In this document: positions 16,999-56,474 of the stretch, piece by piece
Numbering within the stretch: position 1 is the first letter of the stretch
How the letters are laid out: each line of letters begins with the position of its first letter
Source: a plasmid
NCBI RefSeq assembly: GCF_054482595.1
Contig: NZ_JBTHVH010000001.1
Reading direction: 5' to 3' (one strand)
DNA length: 64,000 nucleotides
Notes under the pieces: generated by a model
Databases searched by the model: none
Seen by the model: the letters and a program-made list of their open reading frames with translations, nothing else
What the model was told of the DNA's origin: nothing
Translations under genes and position numbers: made by a program

Positions 16999-17451
16999 AT
17001 GTTACTTAACTGGCAGGGACGCCACTTCATGGAAATAAATCACTCACGAATAACATCGTACGAGATTGCGGATTACATGATCCGCACTAAATCTCTTCTA
17101 TCAGCGAAAGAACTCGCAGCAATTCTTGAAAAGGAATACCCGCATCTGGATGTCGATAAGCGCGATGTTTATCTGCGCTTAAAGGCTATCGCTGTGTCTA
17201 AGTATTCGTCTGTTTTGATTGATGACAGTACACGCCCACGTAGATTTCAGATCCACTCTCTGAATCCTGAATTCTTTCGCCGTAGCCGCGCTCCGCGCCG
17301 GTTTGATGAAAAACTCCAGAACGAACTCTATATGACGCAGGACGAAAAGGAACGCCGGGAGCACCAGCCTTGGGTAATGGCGCGTCAACTTTTCAATAAG
17401 GTGGCCCGTCAGCACCGTCATTACGGTAATGCCACATCCGCACGTATCTGA
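16999..17451 (+). CDS. lpa: Lpa, late promoter activator (gene 10)
   Basis: 150 aa, positioned before pacA as in P1. Confidence 0.65.
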   Translation: MLLNWQGRHFMEINHSRITSYEIADYMIRTKSLLSAKELAAILEKEYPHLDVDKRDVYLRLKAIAVSKYSSVLIDDSTRPRRFQIHSLNPEFFRRSRAPRRFDEKLQNELYMTQDEKERREHQPWVMARQLFNKVARQHRHYGNATSARI

Positions 17452-17536
17452 TTGATTGCTTGCCCGTTCCGGGCCTTTTGACATGTGACTTTCGTTACCC
17501 TCGCGTCAAAAAGAGTTTTTACGAAAGGAAGCATAA

Positions 17537-28228: not shown

Positions 28229-28414
28229 ATTATTTTTAATGATAAATGATTGACAACTGACAAGTGACTTCAGCCAGAATCATCACACGCCCGGTACGGA
28301 TGGATCCCTTTTCAAATATTCCATGGACGGCACAGTCTGAGTACCGGGCGCTACCTTCAGTTGTATGTATTGCTAAGCCGCCGCTGGTGGCTTTTCTTTT
28401 TTGTAGGGGGCGCT

Positions 28415-32800: not shown

Positions 32801-35800
32801 ACGCGGTCCATATCCCTGATTATTGAGAAGATCGGACGGGCTTTCTCGTGCTCAATCACGCCATCTTCATTGACCGAGGTCGTTACGCCATTGTTGGCTT
32901 TGGCCGCCGCTTCCGCCTGCTGACGCAATTCTTCATACGCCGCCAGTTGTTCTTCAGTAAGTGGTGCATCCTGCTGGTGTTCGTCCAGCTCCGGGATCTC
33001 CACGGTATCCTTAACGTCTTCCGCCGTTTTAAGCGTTACCCAGCGATGGAATATACCGCGCAGCGCATCAAGGTTTTCAAAGCCCACCAGCGCCATTTTT
33101 TCTTCAACTTCACCGCTAATTTTCTGTACCGTTTCCAGCCTGGTCTTGCCGAAGAATTTAACGAAGTCATCAGGACCGTAGATCCCCATGTTCTGCCAGT
33201 ATTCCTTCGGCAGAACATGAGAAAGCATGTTGTATGCATCGATCGGGGTGTTAACGACTGGCGTTGCAGTCAGGAGAACCGGCCCGCGCCCGCCATTCTT
33301 TTTCATCAGGTACGCGTTTTTAATTGCCATATCTCGCGCCGATTGCGCCACCGCGCTGGTGGGCAGATAGGCCAGTTGTGACGCTTCGCGACCATTTTTA
33401 TAGCTATTGCGGTAGTTGTGACCTTCGTCAGCGATCACACTATCGAAGCCCATATCCTCAAAGTACGGATACTTCTCTGCTTTTTCGGTGCCGGTATCTG
33501 AATACTCCGACAATACCCGGCGACGCGCAGCCTCTTTGCGGTGGGAGTCGGAGTCCATTGCGCTGGCTACGCGCCCGGCGGCAACGAAGTCATAAAGCAT
33601 ATCCTGTGCATGCTCATCTACGGTGTCATCACGTAGCGGAATGCGGGCGTATTGTTCTTTGGTAAACACGACTGCACGGTAATTTGAGTGCGGGATCGCG
33701 TTCATCCGCGCCGTGATAGTGGCTTCATCTGCCAGCTTAAGAGCATCGCGCATAACGGGAGTGCCATCTGCACCAACGACAGGTTTACCGTTCTCATCGA
33801 GCACCGGCACCAGGCGAATCTGATCGCCATCCATCAGCACATCAAGACCGACGAACAGGTAGTTACTGAATGCCTCTTCACTCAGAAACTCTTTTGCTTC
33901 GTAATACCAGTTTTCCAGCACTGATTTAGGCACTACATACGCAGTACGGGTGGAACGACCGTTCTCATAGTTGAACGCCTCAAGCGCCAGCGCGGTCGTG
34001 GTTTTACCCAGCCCGGTACCGAAGCCCAGGATGCCGCGCCCATCTTCGGACAGTCGGCGCACCTCGCTATTCTGGTAATCAAATGGCTGTCGCTTACCGC
34101 TTAATCCCTTCAACCCAAGCGGATCGCCAGAGTGTTCATACGGGATATTGCTATTGAACACATCGTTGTATTTGGCAACCAGCTCATCGTAGCGATCGTG
34201 CGTCTTGATCCACGTATTGAACTGGTCCTCAAGCAGTGCCATCTGCTCGCGGTAGCCGTTCGCCGTCGCGCTATCTTTGCCACCGATACGCGCACCATTG
34301 AGATACTTTTCCAGCTGTGCCGGGAACCCGGTCGCGTTTTCACCTGATTTACGGTCCCACTCGTAGCGGATCTCGCCTGTTTCTTTATCCTTGCGCTGGA
34401 CGACACCGTATCGGTGCCCGACGAACAGACCATCACCACCGTGATAGGTGTCAGAAACCATTTCGTCGCCTTCCAGCTGCACTGACTGCACATAGCGCAG
34501 ATCCGGATAGCCGTTTTCCTGCAAAAATTCCAGAATCACGGAACGGTCGAACCAACGGCTATTGAGCTTAAACCGGATATTCTCTGCTGGCGTCTTGATG
34601 CGCTTCTCTTCGATCGCTGCCAGCTGATTAAGGACGTTGTTCTTTACTGGACCGTCGGGGAGCGTGGCGAGGAATTCCTGTTTTGGAGCCACTATCTCGT
34701 TAATGTCGCCGCTGGTGGCGCGGGCGAACGGAACAATCCCGCCATACGGTGAAACCGCAATGCCAGGGGTGCTGGCCAATAAATTAAGCAACTCGTCATC
34801 ACTGGCTGGCAGTTCGCCGGTAAACGCAAGGCGGAAATCATCGAGCTGGATTGGATCGCGGGTAAGATCGCTATAGAGATAACGCAGGGTGTCCTGATAG
34901 CTGGTGGAGTCATAACTGGCGCTGGAATCATGCGTAACCAGCTTTCCTGTCAGCTCGTCAGAAATAGTGCCATCCAGCTTAATTGCACCACGGAAAGCAA
35001 ACCAGGCGCGCGCACCGCTCCCCGATAATTTCGCTATCGGACCGCGACCGGGGTTACCAAAACGGTCAATCTCTGCCTGCAAACGGGATACCAGAGAAAG
35101 GCGCTGCTGTTCGATTTGTTCAGCACTATGCCCGGCGGCCTTCATGTCCTGATATTCAATTAACATCCGGCCAATCATCGCTCCGCGATACAAGCGTTCA
35201 CGGTATTTTTCAGGCTGGCTGTTAATCCAGTCCACCAGCTGCACCATATCGTCGCTGATTGATGTGGTGTACTTATCGCGGACATTTGCCATCTGGGTAA
35301 ATGTCATACCGAGACGGCCTTCTGTTGTAGTCAGGTTACGCTGAAGAGCCTCCCAGCTATCCGCACCATAACTGGCAACCTCAATCTTCAGCTCCTTCCC
35401 GGCATCAGCTTCAATCCAGCGACCACCAGCATATTTTTGCCATACGCCATTAATCAGGCGCATTTCCCCTTCATCAACAACATCTGCGGTCGGTGACGGT
35501 TCAGCCATATCGAGCAAAGACCAGTCGATACGACTTTCGAAACGATGAATCAGCTTCGCTTTAAGAGCCTGGTTATCAATCTGCCCGTCGGCACGAACCT
35601 CAATACGCCCCTGGAATCCCTTCTCCTGAGTGCCATGAACAAACCGGCGGCCGTCCTTTTCAAACCACTTGCCAGAAATAAACGTTGGCCAAAGCACATT
35701 TGCCGATTCAAGAGTGTCTTCATCCACCAGGGGGATTTTCTCAGCCATCTCCGCCGGATGTTTGCGCATCAGCACCACGTCAACGACCGTACTGGTCCCG

Positions 35801-36582
35801 TTTGCGTCAAAAGTACCGGTAGGCAAGCGGTGGGCACCAAGAAATTCAGCTTTCCGTGATAGGCGCAGGCGTAACCGCTTCATGTTTGAACCTGAAACAA
35901 TGGACGGCGGCACAATCACGCACATGAATCCGCCTGGCTTTATCTTGTCCAGCATGCGGAGCATGAAGTAAGAACCCATGTCCGTTTCTTCTGCGTAAGG
36001 CTTATCGATGTTGCGTGTGTTATCACGACCACCGAACGGAACGTTACCCACAACATGGTCGAATGAATCGTTAGGCGTGCTTACAGCCAGTTGTTCGAAC
36101 GGGGAAATCTGTACGCTGTCTTCCGGATGTAACAGCTGGTTTATACGACCGGAAACACTGCTGATCTCAGTCGCGGTCATCACCGTACCAACCGGTTTTG
36201 TCTCATTAAAAACGCCGGTGCCCGCCGATGGTTCCAGAGTGTTACCTACGTCCGCGCCGTAGAGCTTCATGATCTCCCAGACACCTTCAGCGATCGGCTT
36301 TGGTGTGTAATATTCGGAGACGGACCCGCCAATGCCACCTTCACCGGTGTACCCAGCCAGGATCTGGCGCTGTTCATCTGTCAGTGTCGCGCCGTCCACC
36401 AGCGAATTAAGCAAATCTATCGCCTTCTGATTCGCCTCACGGCGCAGTCGGTCATAGCTTTTGCCTTCCACCTTTTCCACGCCGTATTTAATCGGCGCTC
36501 GGTGAGATGTTATTGCCCTAATGTATTTCAATATTTCGCTGACACTTGAACAGCGAAACACCCCCATAGATAGCTTGTTCAT
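29815..36582 (-). CDS. darB: DarB antirestriction protein (N6-adenine methyltransferase plus helicase domains)
   Basis: 2255 aa; EPSAGTG and NVPF methyltransferase motifs; GTGLGKT Walker A and DEGH helicase box. Confidence 0.9.
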   Translation of the reverse strand: MNKLSMGVFRCSSVSEILKYIRAITSHRAPIKYGVEKVEGKSYDRLRREANQKAIDLLNSLVDGATLTDEQRQILAGYTGEGGIGGSVSEYYTPKPIAEGVWEIMKLYGADVGNTLEPSAGTGVFNETKPVGTVMTATEISSVSGRINQLLHPEDSVQISPFEQLAVSTPNDSFDHVVGNVPFGGRDNTRNIDKPYAEETDMGSYFMLRMLDKIKPGGFMCVIVPPSIVSGSNMKRLRLRLSRKAEFLGAHRLPTGTFDANGTSTVVDVVLMRKHPAEMAEKIPLVDEDTLESANVLWPTFISGKWFEKDGRRFVHGTQEKGFQGRIEVRADGQIDNQALKAKLIHRFESRIDWSLLDMAEPSPTADVVDEGEMRLINGVWQKYAGGRWIEADAGKELKIEVASYGADSWEALQRNLTTTEGRLGMTFTQMANVRDKYTTSISDDMVQLVDWINSQPEKYRERLYRGAMIGRMLIEYQDMKAAGHSAEQIEQQRLSLVSRLQAEIDRFGNPGRGPIAKLSGSGARAWFAFRGAIKLDGTISDELTGKLVTHDSSASYDSTSYQDTLRYLYSDLTRDPIQLDDFRLAFTGELPASDDELLNLLASTPGIAVSPYGGIVPFARATSGDINEIVAPKQEFLATLPDGPVKNNVLNQLAAIEEKRIKTPAENIRFKLNSRWFDRSVILEFLQENGYPDLRYVQSVQLEGDEMVSDTYHGGDGLFVGHRYGVVQRKDKETGEIRYEWDRKSGENATGFPAQLEKYLNGARIGGKDSATANGYREQMALLEDQFNTWIKTHDRYDELVAKYNDVFNSNIPYEHSGDPLGLKGLSGKRQPFDYQNSEVRRLSEDGRGILGFGTGLGKTTTALALEAFNYENGRSTRTAYVVPKSVLENWYYEAKEFLSEEAFSNYLFVGLDVLMDGDQIRLVPVLDENGKPVVGADGTPVMRDALKLADEATITARMNAIPHSNYRAVVFTKEQYARIPLRDDTVDEHAQDMLYDFVAAGRVASAMDSDSHRKEAARRRVLSEYSDTGTEKAEKYPYFEDMGFDSVIADEGHNYRNSYKNGREASQLAYLPTSAVAQSARDMAIKNAYLMKKNGGRGPVLLTATPVVNTPIDAYNMLSHVLPKEYWQNMGIYGPDDFVKFFGKTRLETVQKISGEVEEKMALVGFENLDALRGIFHRWVTLKTAEDVKDTVEIPELDEHQQDAPLTEEQLAAYEELRQQAEAAAKANNGVTTSVNEDGVIEHEKARPIFSIIRDMDRVCTDMDLYYRRITYRFLPEYADAVQQLADSLPKQATSEDDDSDDSITQQSQYSLIDKGEFIQLQVPEAFEQEVNKRLARFGIDEQTVTHPVTPKYAKLIATLKEFFPEGKQIIFTDEKTQHQKLKRIICNALNLEPSKVGILNAQTVAEAGKTGKKLKAVKPPKELPDEPTDAQIAKYNEQMALYDAYIAQQNEMSLGGLEKIAADFQEGRTPIIICNKKAEVGINLHRGTTDIHHLTLPWTPASIAQRNGRGARVGSNRASVRVHYYCGKGSFDEYRLKTLKRKAGWISDILRSDKSEMENADANDMIEMQMYTAKDDGERLAMMQVQMDKAKAAKRARQKEQATIDLQNYIKAQHAAGEDVEVLTAELERSKAELEKTTAEVAKFKQAAMAKAADNADWKARWGSVHHTDRMLLAQYRASLKSAIQRKANISQAISRYEKLLNRTQKAATDIKRLRPLVEDAINKGILDVDPDLVNHANEFLVIGDRSWRVGQYYDCAGDIVRIKSLDFDSQRADVEIIFTLRGTKSGNWDVKTLDKQVDVTPDEDAVMQKISGGVSIAGINDIISCDDFYRFQQRGMIKITDSYGVQTTESGYSIDFVGTYTDPLKHAVYPDRRDGALKSSIAKWVLGMMSEGNNRQVRLAEVFLTELFGSNYGDVIASYGDTLSPEAIQEKIADAIARMPEKTSQGATRNGDSELEVTNAIFGTHEFRASDYEITTAQFGTIGIYSNKAEIKQAMDAASARIAAEREANLNHAVAALTQSWVTAIREAATTGKITPAIADVVNDGSKFMDAYKMDAVQLPSAYGQLSYRMTYNLVSMFSDLAILGLVDLNEVTPELLSMRKNHVEILQRINTVLAGRTDEEKQADADRINLALGNITEEEIAARNEKQEELSSIQGDATSIAQSLGLNYRVSTADLKMMYAPKFAAGEVFGLQEASGMKGILFRAKDAIKAKFGARWLPAKAKNSDFPGNWWIIETKHNVADVLAVIQQYA

Positions 36583-36649
36583 TGGTAATCCTTAACAAGT
36601 GACTAGTGTTAAATTTCCGTTCAAACACGATGCGAATTATTCTAATTAA

Positions 36650-39380
<2,731 letters not shown>

Positions 39381-39679: not shown

Positions 39680-40229
39680 TGACCAGTCCCGTCAGGCAAA
39701 GCTGGCGTTCTTTTTCACGGCGAATCTTTAAACCTCGCAGGGGCACGCCGTTACTGTTCACAAAATCAGGGAGATGGTTACACATATTCACCCATTCCCC
39801 TTTCTGCGCCCACTTGTGGATGGACGTTTCGACTCGCATGCCTCGCGCTTTGCTGTAGTAGGTCCGTAAGCTATTGCATCCCATATTGAATGCCGCGCTT
39901 GTCATTGCACTAAAGGCATTATCGGGCATGTCTTTGCCCCGGAAGTGCTGATTAATACAGCGTTCAGCGATCAGGATATTCTTTTCCCAATCAGCGGCGA
40001 TTTGCTGGTCGGTTTTTCGCACACCCGGCGTTACCCCGTGTGTATTACCGATCCCGTCAGTCCATACCCCCGCCGGGCACATGTATGGATCACGTCGGCA
40101 ACCTTCAGCGTTACCAATCAGCTCAAGCCCCGCCTGGTTGGTTCGCACATTGCCATTACCCATTACGATGGTAATCATCACCGCGATAGCGCAAATTGCA
40201 CCGCCTCCTGCGGCTGTTTTTCCCTTCAT
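39672..40229 (-). CDS. lyz: Lyz endolysin (T4-lysozyme family, N-terminal signal-anchor)
   Basis: 185 aa; E-x8-D-x5-T catalytic pattern; hydrophobic N-terminus. Confidence 0.85.
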   Translation of the reverse strand: MKGKTAAGGGAICAIAVMITIVMGNGNVRTNQAGLELIGNAEGCRRDPYMCPAGVWTDGIGNTHGVTPGVRKTDQQIAADWEKNILIAERCINQHFRGKDMPDNAFSAMTSAAFNMGCNSLRTYYSKARGMRVETSIHKWAQKGEWVNMCNHLPDFVNSNGVPLRGLKIRREKERQLCLTGLVNE

Positions 40230-40360
40230 AAAGACCTCATAAGCGAATTTTTACGCTCCAGGACAAACACCCATTCACAGCCAATACCGACTGACTCGAT
40301 CCCTTTAGAAGGCACAGGATAATGCAAATCACTTGTTAGCTACGTTTCAAAGATATACAT

Positions 40361-50030: not shown

Positions 50031-50356
50031 TTCCCGCCTCCCTTTTTCACCAAACTTGTAAGAACATTCAGAATGCTATCGATATTCACTCGTTTCATCC
50101 CTGAAATCACCTCATGACCGTTATTGCTGGCTATCGTTACCATTAAGTACGTAATTGATAACTCCCAGCCCTCGTGTTGCCCCAATAGGTACGCCACCGC
50201 GCCAGCTGTCACTGCAACAAAGATCTCCGTAACCAATCCCAACAAATTGCCAGACTGGCGACCGTCTCGGACATCCATCAGGAACGTGCCTATCCCACCA
50301 ATTACTGAAAGCAGGAGCGCAATAGCAACTGGAGCTAATTCCTGTGTGTCAAGCAC
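50027..50356 (-). CDS. lydA: LydA holin
   Basis: 109 aa with hydrophobic helices. Confidence 0.6.
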   Translation of the reverse strand: MLDTQELAPVAIALLLSVIGGIGTFLMDVRDGRQSGNLLGLVTEIFVAVTAGAVAYLLGQHEGWELSITYLMVTIASNNGHEVISGMKRVNIDSILNVLTSLVKKGGGK

Positions 50357-50423
50357 AAGTTCCCTCCTACGTTGTCAGGAGGTAATGGTATGCAAAGTAA
50401 CTTCTCAACCGGTCATTTGTTGC

Positions 50424-50705
50424 TTAAGAGGCATTTCTATTGAGGTACGAATCGATAATCCTTTGTAACTTTTCAAGAATGAGCCTGTTATTGATGCTGC
50501 AAATAATAGTCACGCAATTCTGAAGACTTTCATCCATACCCTTATATTCCGCGAAATACATGCCTATAAAGCCTGCAAGTACGGCAGCAATACACTCGGC
50601 CATCAATTGCCTGTATGACGCTTCGTAACGTTTTTCACGAACCCCATTCAGAAACGAATGCACCCCGCCAAGGATGGAGAGGAGCATTATTGTGAAATCA
50701 CACAT
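50424..50705 (-). CDS. LydC-like holin-family membrane protein
   Basis: 93 aa, hydrophobic helices. Confidence 0.4.
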   Translation of the reverse strand: MCDFTIMLLSILGGVHSFLNGVREKRYEASYRQLMAECIAAVLAGFIGMYFAEYKGMDESLQNCVTIICSINNRLILEKLQRIIDSYLNRNAS

Positions 50706-50832
50706 AACTATTTCCTTAATAGTGAATTAAATATCATTGGGAAACGGTATGTACTTTGTGATTTCCACACATACTGGTTTTTGTTAATTAAAATCCGCAG
50801 CTTGCTATAAATAACGATAGTGAGCAGAAAAT

Positions 50833-51551: not shown

Positions 51552-54500
51552 TATGCAAACTCCTCGATAATACAAATCCCTGCAGCGCCTTTCCCGCCCG
51601 TCATACTGGTTCCGCTATAACCGGCATCGTATGCACCACCGCCGCCCGAACCATATGCCCGACCGATAACGCCACCGCCAGCGCCTGCGCGACCACCGCC
51701 CCCCCAGAACGATGATCCTCCTTCACCACTGACGCTGATATTTCCGGACTGACCGTCACCTCCATGCCCACCAATAATGCGGACATCACCAGTATTCGGC
51801 GCGCCTCCATTACCACCGTTCGTGTTTGTGACTCCTACTTTCCCGCCGCCTTCACCGCCAGGGGCTATTACCGTTCCGAACGAGCTATCACCGCCCTTGA
51901 GGCCGTTCGTCGCACCAACACCGCCGCCCCCACCTGCGCCGATAGTGACTGGATAACTATTCTGTGTCGGGGTCATTATTGAAATTATTGTCCCACCGGC
52001 CCCACCGCCAGCACCGAAAAACGTCTCGTTATTGGATGTAGCCTGGCAGCCACCACCTCCGCCACCGCCGCCCGTAATTGTGACCCTGATTCGTTTTGTT
52101 CCTGGCGTCGGGGTATACGTACCTGATGAAGTGAAAACCCGGGTATTCACCAAACGCCCAACATATCCGCTTGAATCGCTCAGGCCAAGGTTAGCAGCAG
52201 TTAAAGTAATATTTGCAGAACCATCAAACTTAACACCGTTGATAGTGCGTGCAGTCTGTAGTTTCGTTGCGGTTGCGGCATTACCGGTAGTGCTCTGATT
52301 ACCTGCTTTATTCACGCCCGGCAGGTCGATATTGGCACTACCATCGAATGACACTCCGCCTATTGTGCGTGCTGTTTGCAGTTTTGTTGCAGTTGCAGCA
52401 TTGCCGGTAGTGCTCTGATTACCTGTTTTATTCACGCCCGGCAGGTCGATATTGGCACTACCATCAAATGACACCCCGCCGATTGTGCGTACTGTTTGCA
52501 GTTTCGTAGCGGTTGCAGCATTGCCGTTCAAACTACCATTGATGCCGCCAGTAACATTGAGTCCATTACCGATCGTAACAGTACCATTGGCATTGTTAAT
52601 GATAAGCGGCCTTAAATTATTATAGGTTCCCAGGCTGTTACCCGAATTGGTCAACATGAAATATGTGTTTGAACCATCGTTTCGGATAAAGAATCCGTAG
52701 TTTCCGTAGGCAATGCGCAGACCATTCGCCGATTTTGAAATGATCTCACCAGTAGCCGTTAAACCGCCGTTGAGATTTCCTCCGGTTATTGGTAATGCGC
52801 CGACATCCGTGGCGGTCGGTTTAATGTGCGAACTGTAAATTACATATACAGTTCCATCTGTCAGGCCTGTTGGTTTATTCGCTGTATAAGATGGTGATGT
52901 ATGAATCGTTACGCTGGCGTTACTGGTATAATCCCACTGAATATTAACACGTGTGGTGTAATTACCTATTTCAACATAAACATCATAGGTATCACCGGAT
53001 GTATTCACCCATGCAAAATTAGTAAATCCAACCGATGTCCGTCGCCATAACGCACCAGTAAGACCTTTTGGATTCCCATTTCCCGCACGAAGAACAAGTT
53101 CAGATATACCAGCCTGCATAGGGGAGTTAACATTATATCCAGAACCACCAATCAGGCTTATGTAAACCACGGAACTGGACTGTGGCATGGTTACAGTTGC
53201 CAGCTTGAACCATCCAGTACCACCACTAAAAGACATTGTTGTTGAGTTGATCGTGCCTATAGACCTTGGAGTTAGCTCAATGTTTTTAGAACCGTCAAAC
53301 AACACCCCATTTATAGTTCTAGCGGTTTGTAACTTGGTCGCTGTCGCTGCATTACCGGATGTATTCTGATTACCCGCAACGTTAACACCAGGTAAATTAA
53401 TATTCGCAGTACCATCAAAGCTAACTCCGCCGATAGTTCTTGCCGTCTGTAGTTTTGTAGCAGTTGCCGCATTGCCAGTTGTATTCTGATTGCCAGTGGC
53501 ATTCACACCAGGAATGGAGTCCCTTGATGTATATACCTGCGCCCACGCTGACCATGCCGCATCAGTGTGATCTCTTCGGGAGCGAATGAAAACCGGCGCA
53601 TGTGCACCGCTCGTACCACTCCAGCCAATAAGCAACTCGCCCTCACCAGCAGCACTCGCACCTTTCATGTGCAATACGTTGCCATACGCGGTCGGGTAGC
53701 TATTGTTGTACGCCTCATACATCTGCAATCCAGTAGAAGCACCTTGTGTTGTATCGGTGAGCGCAGTAACACGCCCTCTGGACGCAATTGTTGGTATCGA
53801 AATGTTCGCAGAACCATCAAACTTAACACCGTTGATTGTGCGTGCTGTTTGCAGTTTTGTTGCAGTTGCGGCATTACCGGTAGTGCTCTGATTACCTGCT
53901 TTATTCACGCCCGGCAGGTCGATATTGGCACTACCATCAAATGACACCCCGCCGATTGTGCGTACTGTTTGCAGTTTCGTAGCGGTTGCAGCATTGCCGG
54001 TAGTGCTCTGATTACCTGCTTTATTCACGCCCGGCAGGTCGATATTGGCACTACCATCGAACGACACTCCGCCGATTGTGCGTGCTGTTTGCAGTTTTGT
54101 GGCGGTGGATGCATTACCTGTCAAAGATCCACTAAGAGCCACGGCACTAAGAGACTTAACACTTACATCCTGACCCCATCCGGAAACAACAACCTGACTC
54201 CACGCTGTCCAGTTTCCATTAACAACAAAGCGAACGTATATACGTTTTGTGTCGCTGTTAATCAGCGTTTGCATGTTCGCATAATCTGATCCCGTAGTCT
54301 TACGAATCGACTCTACACGAACCAAAAAGTTACCGCTTACGCCGTCAGGCTTATTGGTAATATTTGCACCACCTGCGACAGTTTTGCATTGATAGTATTT
54401 AACGGATCCAGCTTCTGTATTAGCAATAATCAAGTCGTTTAAATCAATAGCCCGGCCGTCAATGGCTTCCGGCTCGATGGCTCCTGCTATCCCGGCACTG

Positions 54501-56424: not shown

Positions 56425-56474
56425 GATTTTCCCTAATCAATGTTGTGAAGCCTCATTGTAAGAAAAGTAACTTG

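Follow-up and report, generated by a model that had tools for sequence, protein, structure and literature searches.

At the middle promoters of phage T4, the sigma-70 holoenzyme and the -10 element are kept, and an activator box recognised by a phage protein (the MotA box) replaces the -35 element, an arrangement described as 'sigma appropriation'. The MotA box is centred at -30, and the phage co-activator AsiA is needed to remodel region 4 of sigma. The late promoters of phage P1 differ from these in using a host protein, SspA, and in having their box at -22, and the likeness drawn here between the two is one of promoter layout. In P1, expression of the late genes requires the late promoter activator Lpa together with SspA (PMC8201110; PMC11228462). 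SspA binds RNA polymerase (beta' and sigma-70) and not DNA, and Lpa is the sequence-specific partner (PMC11228462). It has been suggested that Lpa may touch SspA as PigR does MglA-SspA in Francisella (PMC2763202), an analogy drawn by the authors of that paper themselves. The two systems are alike in that a sequence-specific activator is proposed to contact an SspA-family protein associated with RNA polymerase; they differ in that PigR and Lpa belong to different families of DNA-binding proteins, and the contact between Lpa and SspA is hypothetical.

Eleven late promoters are annotated in P1 (AF234172) and were extracted for comparison: LPmat, LPpro, LPlyz, LPdar, LPs, LPsit, LP23, LP26, LPpmgL, LPhot and LPpac. 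In ten of the eleven, a 9-bp box (consensus AAGTGACTT) is followed after a 4-nt spacer by a -10 element, which takes the form TAnnnT in eight of the ten; LPhot has a 9-nt spacer. LPpro, with which we are mainly concerned here, is annotated in P1 as 'late promoter LPpro' at 17251-17269, with a '-22 region' at 17251-17259 and a -10 at 17264-17269, and P7 (AF503408) bears the same annotation.

The DNA analysed here (referred to below as the window) is the whole 64,000-nucleotide stretch, which on sequence comparison is a mosaic P1-type phage-plasmid. It is colinear with P1 (AF234172) but mosaic, running from approximately 77.1 kb through the record origin to approximately 45.5 kb in P1 coordinates, with segments replaced in the res/mod, hot and IS1 regions and over part of the invertible tail-fibre segment. 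Positions 35000-38000 are 98% identical to P1 and to its relatives P7, RCS47 and SJ46. An E. coli plasmid matches the 601 bases around LPpro at 100% identity, and this stretch is found in about 490 plasmid records. Eight of the eleven P1 late promoters map into the window, as listed in Table 1; the LPhot region is missing, and LPsit and LP23 lie outside. LP26 and LPpmgL were mapped from the P1 annotation through a 79-nt context that is 100% identical.

Table 1. Late promoters, their parts and related features. Positions are those of the window except where P1 or D6 coordinates are indicated.
Feature	Position	Strand	Sequence or remark
LP26	1369-1387	-	Box AAATGACTA at 1379-1387, -10 TAGAAT at 1369-1374; from P1 annotation
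LPpmgL	1379-1397	+	Box of LP26 read as TAGTCATTT, -10 AATATT at 1392-1397; divergent from LP26
lpa (late promoter activator)	16999-17451	+	100% identity to P1 Lpa; PF25716 BPP1_LPA, 193 bits; phrog_1704
LPpac	17483-17501	+	ATGTGACTT-tcgt-TACCCT; between lpa and pacA
LPmat	28262-28280	+	AAGTGACTT-cagc-CAGAAT
LPpro, 5' flank of box	36595-36596	+	AC; conserved, outside the annotated 9-bp box
LPpro, -22 box	36597-36605	+	AAGTGACTA; presumed Lpa-binding 9-bp imperfect inverted repeat; the '-22 region' annotated in P1 and P7
LPpro, -10 hexamer	36610-36615	+	TAAATT; annotated minus_10_signal in P1 and P7
prt (portal), first gene from LPpro	36659-38368	+	TTG start 43 nt past the -10
LPlyz	40316-40336	-	AC at 40335-40336, box AAGTGATTT at 40326-40334, -10 TATCCT at 40316-40321; P1 20969-20987
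LPdar, promoter of lydA-lydB-dar	50385-50403	-	Box AAGTTACTT at 50395-50403, tgca, -10 TACCAT at 50385-50390; P1 31212-31230
Third site of the first-pass annotation	50412-50424	-	AGCAACAAATGAC; between the lydC stop (50424) and LPdar; judged not to be a late-promoter element
D6-type late-promoter-like element	50744-50764	-	AAATCACAAAGTA-ca-TACCGT; upstream of lydC (ATG 50705)
LPs	56455-56473	-	AAGTTACTT-ttct-TACAAT; upstream of tail-fibre gene R
D6 13-mer sites	19215, 25229, 31519, 38123, 45499, 54132, 56906, 67401, 72108 (D6)		MF356679

The 19-mer AAGTGACTAGTGTTAAATT at 36597-36615 (+) is identical to the annotated LPpro of both P1 and P7. As in P1, it is flanked by darB and prt in the same orientation, in a genome that also encodes the activator; a single T added directly behind the -10 in the window (TAAATTTCC, compared with TAAATTCC in P1) is a trivial difference. 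We are highly confident that this element corresponds to LPpro, the Lpa-dependent late promoter of a P1-type phage-plasmid, a function that we infer from its identity to P1. All the parts expected of such a promoter can be recognised. The box matches the consensus at eight of nine positions, and is separated from the -10 by the 4-nt spacer gtgt, so that 36606-36615 reads as gtgt followed by TAAATT; a TG at 36607-36608 precedes the -10, giving it the form of an extended -10. A sigma-70 scan of 36400-36800 gives no promoter that uses this -10, consistent with the lack of a -35 element, and the hexamer 17 nt upstream of the -10 is AATCCT. The cognate activator gene, lpa, is encoded in the window. 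LPpro occupies a 76-bp gap bounded by the starts of darB (36582, minus strand) and prt (36659, plus strand), and precedes prt and pro on the same strand by 43 nt.

LPpro fires toward prt and pro only, and not toward darB. Divergent use of its box toward darB, on the pattern of LP26 and LPpmgL, was considered and rejected: on the minus strand the hexamer at +4 reads AGGATT, and the box is only 14 nt from the darB ATG. We also rejected a -35-like hexamer (xxxACA) overlapping the box at 12-nt spacing, its resemblance to a -35 coming almost wholly from the conserved ACA, as judged from the aligned sites. The first-pass annotation, which was made from the letters alone, had described a 19-mer, TAACAAGTGACTAGTGTTA, in the darB/prt gap, and had proposed it as a candidate Lpa-dependent late-promoter element. 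This 19-mer is present exactly as described, at 36593-36611 (+), and the proposal is borne out by the annotation of LPpro in P1 and P7 on identical sequence and by the presence of lpa in the window. Because LPpro is already annotated in P1 and P7, it is a known feature, and the finding is right in substance but ordinary.

Two further features of the surrounding DNA can be described. At 36512-36528 (+), inside the 5' end of darB, the sequence ATTGCCCTAATGTATTT resembles the P1 C1-repressor operator. P7 annotates this site as 'hypothetical operator Op(pro)' controlling the pro operon, and it is unannotated in P1; at the same position JK004 and pCVMN1543 (described below) have ATTGCTCTAATAAATC, which is nearer to the consensus. 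In the prt leader, at 36634-36652 (+), a block AATTATTCTAAT-N-AAGGT is invariant even in relatives of approximately 70% identity. It holds the prt ribosome-binding site and TAGAAT (36639-36644), which is the reverse complement of the -10 of the predicted sigma-70 promoter PdarB.

The composite pattern AAGTGACTT-N4-TAnnnT with at most one mismatch matches the window six times, compared with 0.32 expected, and none of 100 shuffles reaches six. All six matches are annotated P1 late promoters, and allowing two mismatches adds LP26 only. Each of the eight late promoters reads into a late operon on its own strand, at a distance of 19-88 nt from the first gene of that operon (gene 26, pmgL, pacA, mat, prt, lyz, lydA or R), and these operons are concerned with morphogenesis, lysis or packaging; for LPlyz, the lyz ATG at 40229 is 86 nt downstream. 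A blind search of the 5.3 kb of non-coding DNA for 9-mers placed 4 nt before TAnnnT returned AAGTGACTT joint top with the C1-operator core, at a count reached by one of 200 simulations. The same blind search conducted genome-wide lacks power, the five copies of AAGTGACTT being the typical simulation maximum, and its top matches are tail-fibre repeats and C1 operators. A position weight matrix (PWM) found no further late promoters above chance in the non-P1 segments of the window. The best extra match, at 50073-50094 (-) inside lydA, scores 12.6 bits, which is the mean simulation maximum. A full-text literature search for AAGTGACTT returned unrelated primer sequences only. All eight late promoters of a P1-like plasmid are thus placed, which should be useful for annotation.

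We note that the composite pattern with at most two mismatches matches only the seven true sites, though 4.6 matches are expected by chance. This shortage of spurious matches may reflect avoidance, and is not significant (rough Poisson P approximately 0.07).

The region of LPpro was aligned between the window, P1, P7, Cronobacter phage JK004 and the Salmonella plasmid pCVMN1543. JK004 is a usefully diverged relative, having an Lpa that is 67% identical and DNA that is approximately 72% identical at the LPpro region. The LPpro box is nearly invariant in JK004 and pCVMN1543, and the stretch ATCCTT-N-ACAAGTGAC-N-AGTGTTA is invariant across the three lineages, while the neighbouring darB codons diverge heavily. 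The composite pattern has 11 matches in JK004 compared with 1.8 expected; eight of these are upstream of same-strand genes, and include the orthologues of LPpro, LPlyz, LPs, LP23, LP26 and LPpac. When a PWM built only from these eight JK004 sites was run on the window, LPpro came first with 24.7 bits, compared with a simulation maximum of 17.2, and LPpac, LPlyz and LPs followed with 20-23 bits. A scan of viral contigs for more diverse Lpa loci produced only copies that were 99-100% identical and was uninformative.

Two other good late-promoter matches in JK004 have no annotated P1 counterpart. One, at 83285-83303 (+), diverges from LPlyz and is directed toward gene_114, which occupies the position of ssb; the other is at 69127-69145 (-), upstream of gene_100 in the pmgN region.

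Directly 5' of the -22 box, the dinucleotide AC is conserved to the same degree as the box. Across nine P1 and eight JK004 sites, A is found in 17 of 17 and C in 16 of 17, where the JK004 sites were chosen by position and not by the presence of AC. In the window, six of the eight sites have AC, compared with a background AC frequency of 5.4% (P approximately 6e-7), the two others being LPdar (GAG) and LPpmgL (CGC). The pattern ACAARTKAYTW, which combines this flank with the box, has five matches compared with 0.44 expected. No symmetric GT is found 3' of the box. The late-promoter element is therefore asymmetric (ACAAGTGACTT), because the 5' AC has no 3' GT partner, and the AC may be what gives an otherwise palindromic box its direction. 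The AC is also the real content of the 'TAAC' with which the motif of the first-pass annotation begins.

That annotation had placed a third copy of its motif upstream of lydA, as a 9/11 variant. The variant, CAACAAATGAC, does exist, at 50412-50422 (-); it is not, however, LPdar, the actual late promoter of this operon (lydA start, GTG at 50356), whose box lies further downstream (Table 1). The box-like 9-mer within the third site, AAATGACCG, matches the consensus at six of nine positions and stands 15 bp upstream of the LPdar box. The hexamer at +4 is AGAAGT, which does not fit TAnnnT.

It could be argued that the third site is nevertheless a real auxiliary half-site for Lpa, forming a tandem box that compensates for the missing AC flank of LPdar, a lack that sets LPdar apart from all other canonical sites in the window. 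The left 11 nt of the LP26 element are the same as CAACAAATGAC, and we put at approximately 0.013 the chance that a match of this kind would fall in the 100 nt before lydA and on the correct strand. Against this, the site has no -10 at the proper distance, and a 9/11 match is at chance level, equalled by 13 other scattered and presumably random matches. In P1-like plasmids that lack lydC, a homology breakpoint runs through the site and its left part is replaced; the sequence is TTTGCATGACC in CP027575, a 2-nt deletion is seen in CP033848, and these plasmids are identical from ATGACCGG onward, LPdar included. The site is also absent from pCVMN1543 and JK004, in which the spacing and -10 of LPdar persist; the orthologue there keeps the right half-site, the spacing and the -10, as AAAGCACTT-N4-TAACAT. 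We therefore regard an auxiliary role as improbable, and take LPdar alone to be the late promoter upstream of lydA.

The breakpoint between P1-like plasmids with and without lydC falls at the third site itself (50412-50425). It is just upstream of LPdar, and this late promoter therefore marks a module boundary.

The first-pass annotation had also drawn attention to an outer dyad, TAACA/TGTTA, around its motif. The dyad is a real 5-bp inverted repeat, but it is specific to LPpro and not functional as such. If TAACA-N9-TGTTA were instead a separate operator, or a hairpin in the DNA or in the darB leader RNA, distinct from the Lpa box, this would fit with the perfect inverted repeat formed by the arms, with the invariance of the right arm in three lineages, and with the position of the predicted sigma-70 promoter PdarB (annotated in P1), from which the stretch would be transcribed as darB leader, immediately ahead of the ribosome-binding site of darB. 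The calculated folding speaks against it: the hairpin has a free energy of -1.8 to -1.9 kcal/mol, no better than shuffled sequences (z -0.19 and -0.11), and in the case of the 56-nt leader the shuffles fold better (z +0.87). Nor does any terminator-like site overlap the 19-mer, whose stem-loop is the one of -1.8 kcal/mol (z -0.19). The pattern of conservation points the same way, the left arm TAACA being TCACA in JK004 and pCVMN1543 with no compensation in the right arm, and such arms being found at no other late promoter. The right arm, TGTTA (36607-36611), consists of the end of the spacer (the TGn of the extended -10) and the first two bases of the -10; and the centre of the dyad at 36602 is offset by 1 nt from that of the Lpa box at 36601. 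We estimate that chance alone would place roughly one 5-bp inverted repeat, contained within 20 nt, in a region of 76 bp. A separate operator or hairpin is thus very improbable, and we conclude that the outer dyad is incidental to the Lpa box and its -10.

The functional unit had been put forward as a 10-mer, TAACAAGTGA. This recurs as claimed, with one further exact copy at 40329-40338 (-), which precedes the lyz start (40229) by 100 nt, and this second copy overlaps the annotated LPlyz. As a unit, however, the 10-mer does not hold: it is the LPpro element read 4 nt too far upstream, comprising TAAC and box positions 1-6 and leaving out both the right half-site and the -10. The actual unit is a AAGTGACTT-like box followed by N4 and TAnnnT. 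Compared with the published consensus, it agrees in substance, containing six of nine box positions and the 5' AC, and differs in register. In this register a motif search finds no enrichment, the 10-mer with at most one mismatch having five matches compared with 3.86 expected, a count equalled by 40 of 100 shuffles, and the 11-mer with at most two mismatches having 20 compared with 14 expected; both were dropped as motif definitions for want of enrichment. One of the one-mismatch matches of the 10-mer, at 28258, is LPmat. It could be held that TAACAAGTGA recurs by coincidence and that its copies have no function in common, given this lack of enrichment and a prior probability of approximately 0.12 that a given 10-mer will have another exact copy in 128 kb (both strands counted), but three of the five matches (28258, 36593 and 40329) sit on annotated late promoters and the properly registered motif is strongly enriched and correctly placed, so that coincidence is the least probable of the alternatives and is effectively refuted. 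A reading of the sequence alone thus recovered a genuine regulatory motif, in the wrong register.

We found no solved structure of Lpa. An AlphaFold model, made with 15 homologues, has a winged helix-turn-helix at residues 17-95 (pLDDT approximately 90) and a long C-terminal helix of lower certainty. The nearest solved folds found by Foldseek are all winged-helix DNA-binding domains (Fur/PerR, MarR, Forkhead and PadR), with weak scores (E 0.02-0.1). A MerR-like architecture was considered and rejected, the predicted topology being that of a canonical winged helix, with no MerR protein among the 50 Foldseek matches listed. In the light of this model we infer that Lpa would contact the box through its winged helix.

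The start of Lpa deserves comment. Most of the diverged homologues begin at Met11 of the open reading frame in the window (MSRN..RITSYEIA), and residues 1-13 have pLDDT below 50; the true lpa start may therefore be the internal ATG.

The mechanism that we propose would begin early in lytic growth, when C1 repression is lifted and Lpa would be made and accumulate. Lpa would bind the box, which would stand in for the -35 and is centred approximately 21-22 bp upstream of the predicted start. With the SspA associated with RNA polymerase, it would enable the sigma-70 holoenzyme to start at promoters that lack a -35, using the -10. LPpro would then drive prt (portal) and pro (head protease), the element at 40316-40334 (-) would drive lyz, and six further copies would drive the packaging, tail, tail-fibre, lysis and Dar genes.

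Phage D6 (MF356679) provides a more distant comparison. It is like P1 in being the same type of genome, in having an Lpa homologue, in having a box that abuts the -10 in place of a -35, and in the location of these boxes upstream of orthologous late operons (prt, lydA, R, gene 23, mat and others); it is unlike P1 in the sequence and spacing of the box. The D6 element consists of a recurrent 13-mer, AAATCACAAACTG, followed by N2 and an nAnnnT -10, and is found upstream of nine late or lysis operons. Overall the 13-mer has 11 matches compared with 3.7 expected, two of which are intragenic with no -10. The Lpa of D6 has 31% identity to that of P1 and a different predicted recognition helix, and a change of box alongside divergence of Lpa is the pattern that would be expected if the box sets the specificity of the activator. 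The argument from co-variation is not clean, as D6 has, between its gene 26 and mat, one late promoter that is perfectly P1-type (gacAAGTGACTTtcatTAATCT, 71096-71114 (+)), the only site of this type in D6.

The window in turn holds a D6-type element, upstream of the holin-like gene lydC (Table 1). Its 13-mer is identical to that upstream of D6 gene 23. The whole element is identical in P1, where no promoter is annotated, and is kept in an allele that is 85% identical. We offer, as a speculative proposal that is more doubtful than probable, that Lpa may read an asymmetric 11-mer comprising AC and AAGTGACTT, and not a symmetric 9-bp repeat, with the AC then fixing the direction of the promoter, and, separately, that P1-type genomes carry a D6-class promoter upstream of lydC. 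The latter, if true, hints at cross-talk of activators between phage-plasmids, or at a second specificity of Lpa. The AC flank, the change of box with divergence of Lpa in D6 and the element upstream of lydC are mildly useful by-products of an analysis that adds nothing to the biology of LPpro beyond the P1 and P7 annotations.

Finally, one repeat was noted in DNA with no P1 homology. In the tail-fibre/invertible-segment region, the sequence caggTCGATATTGgcacTACCAT is present in four identical copies, at 52326, 52446, 53919 and 54039 (+), which form two pairs with their members 120 nt apart.
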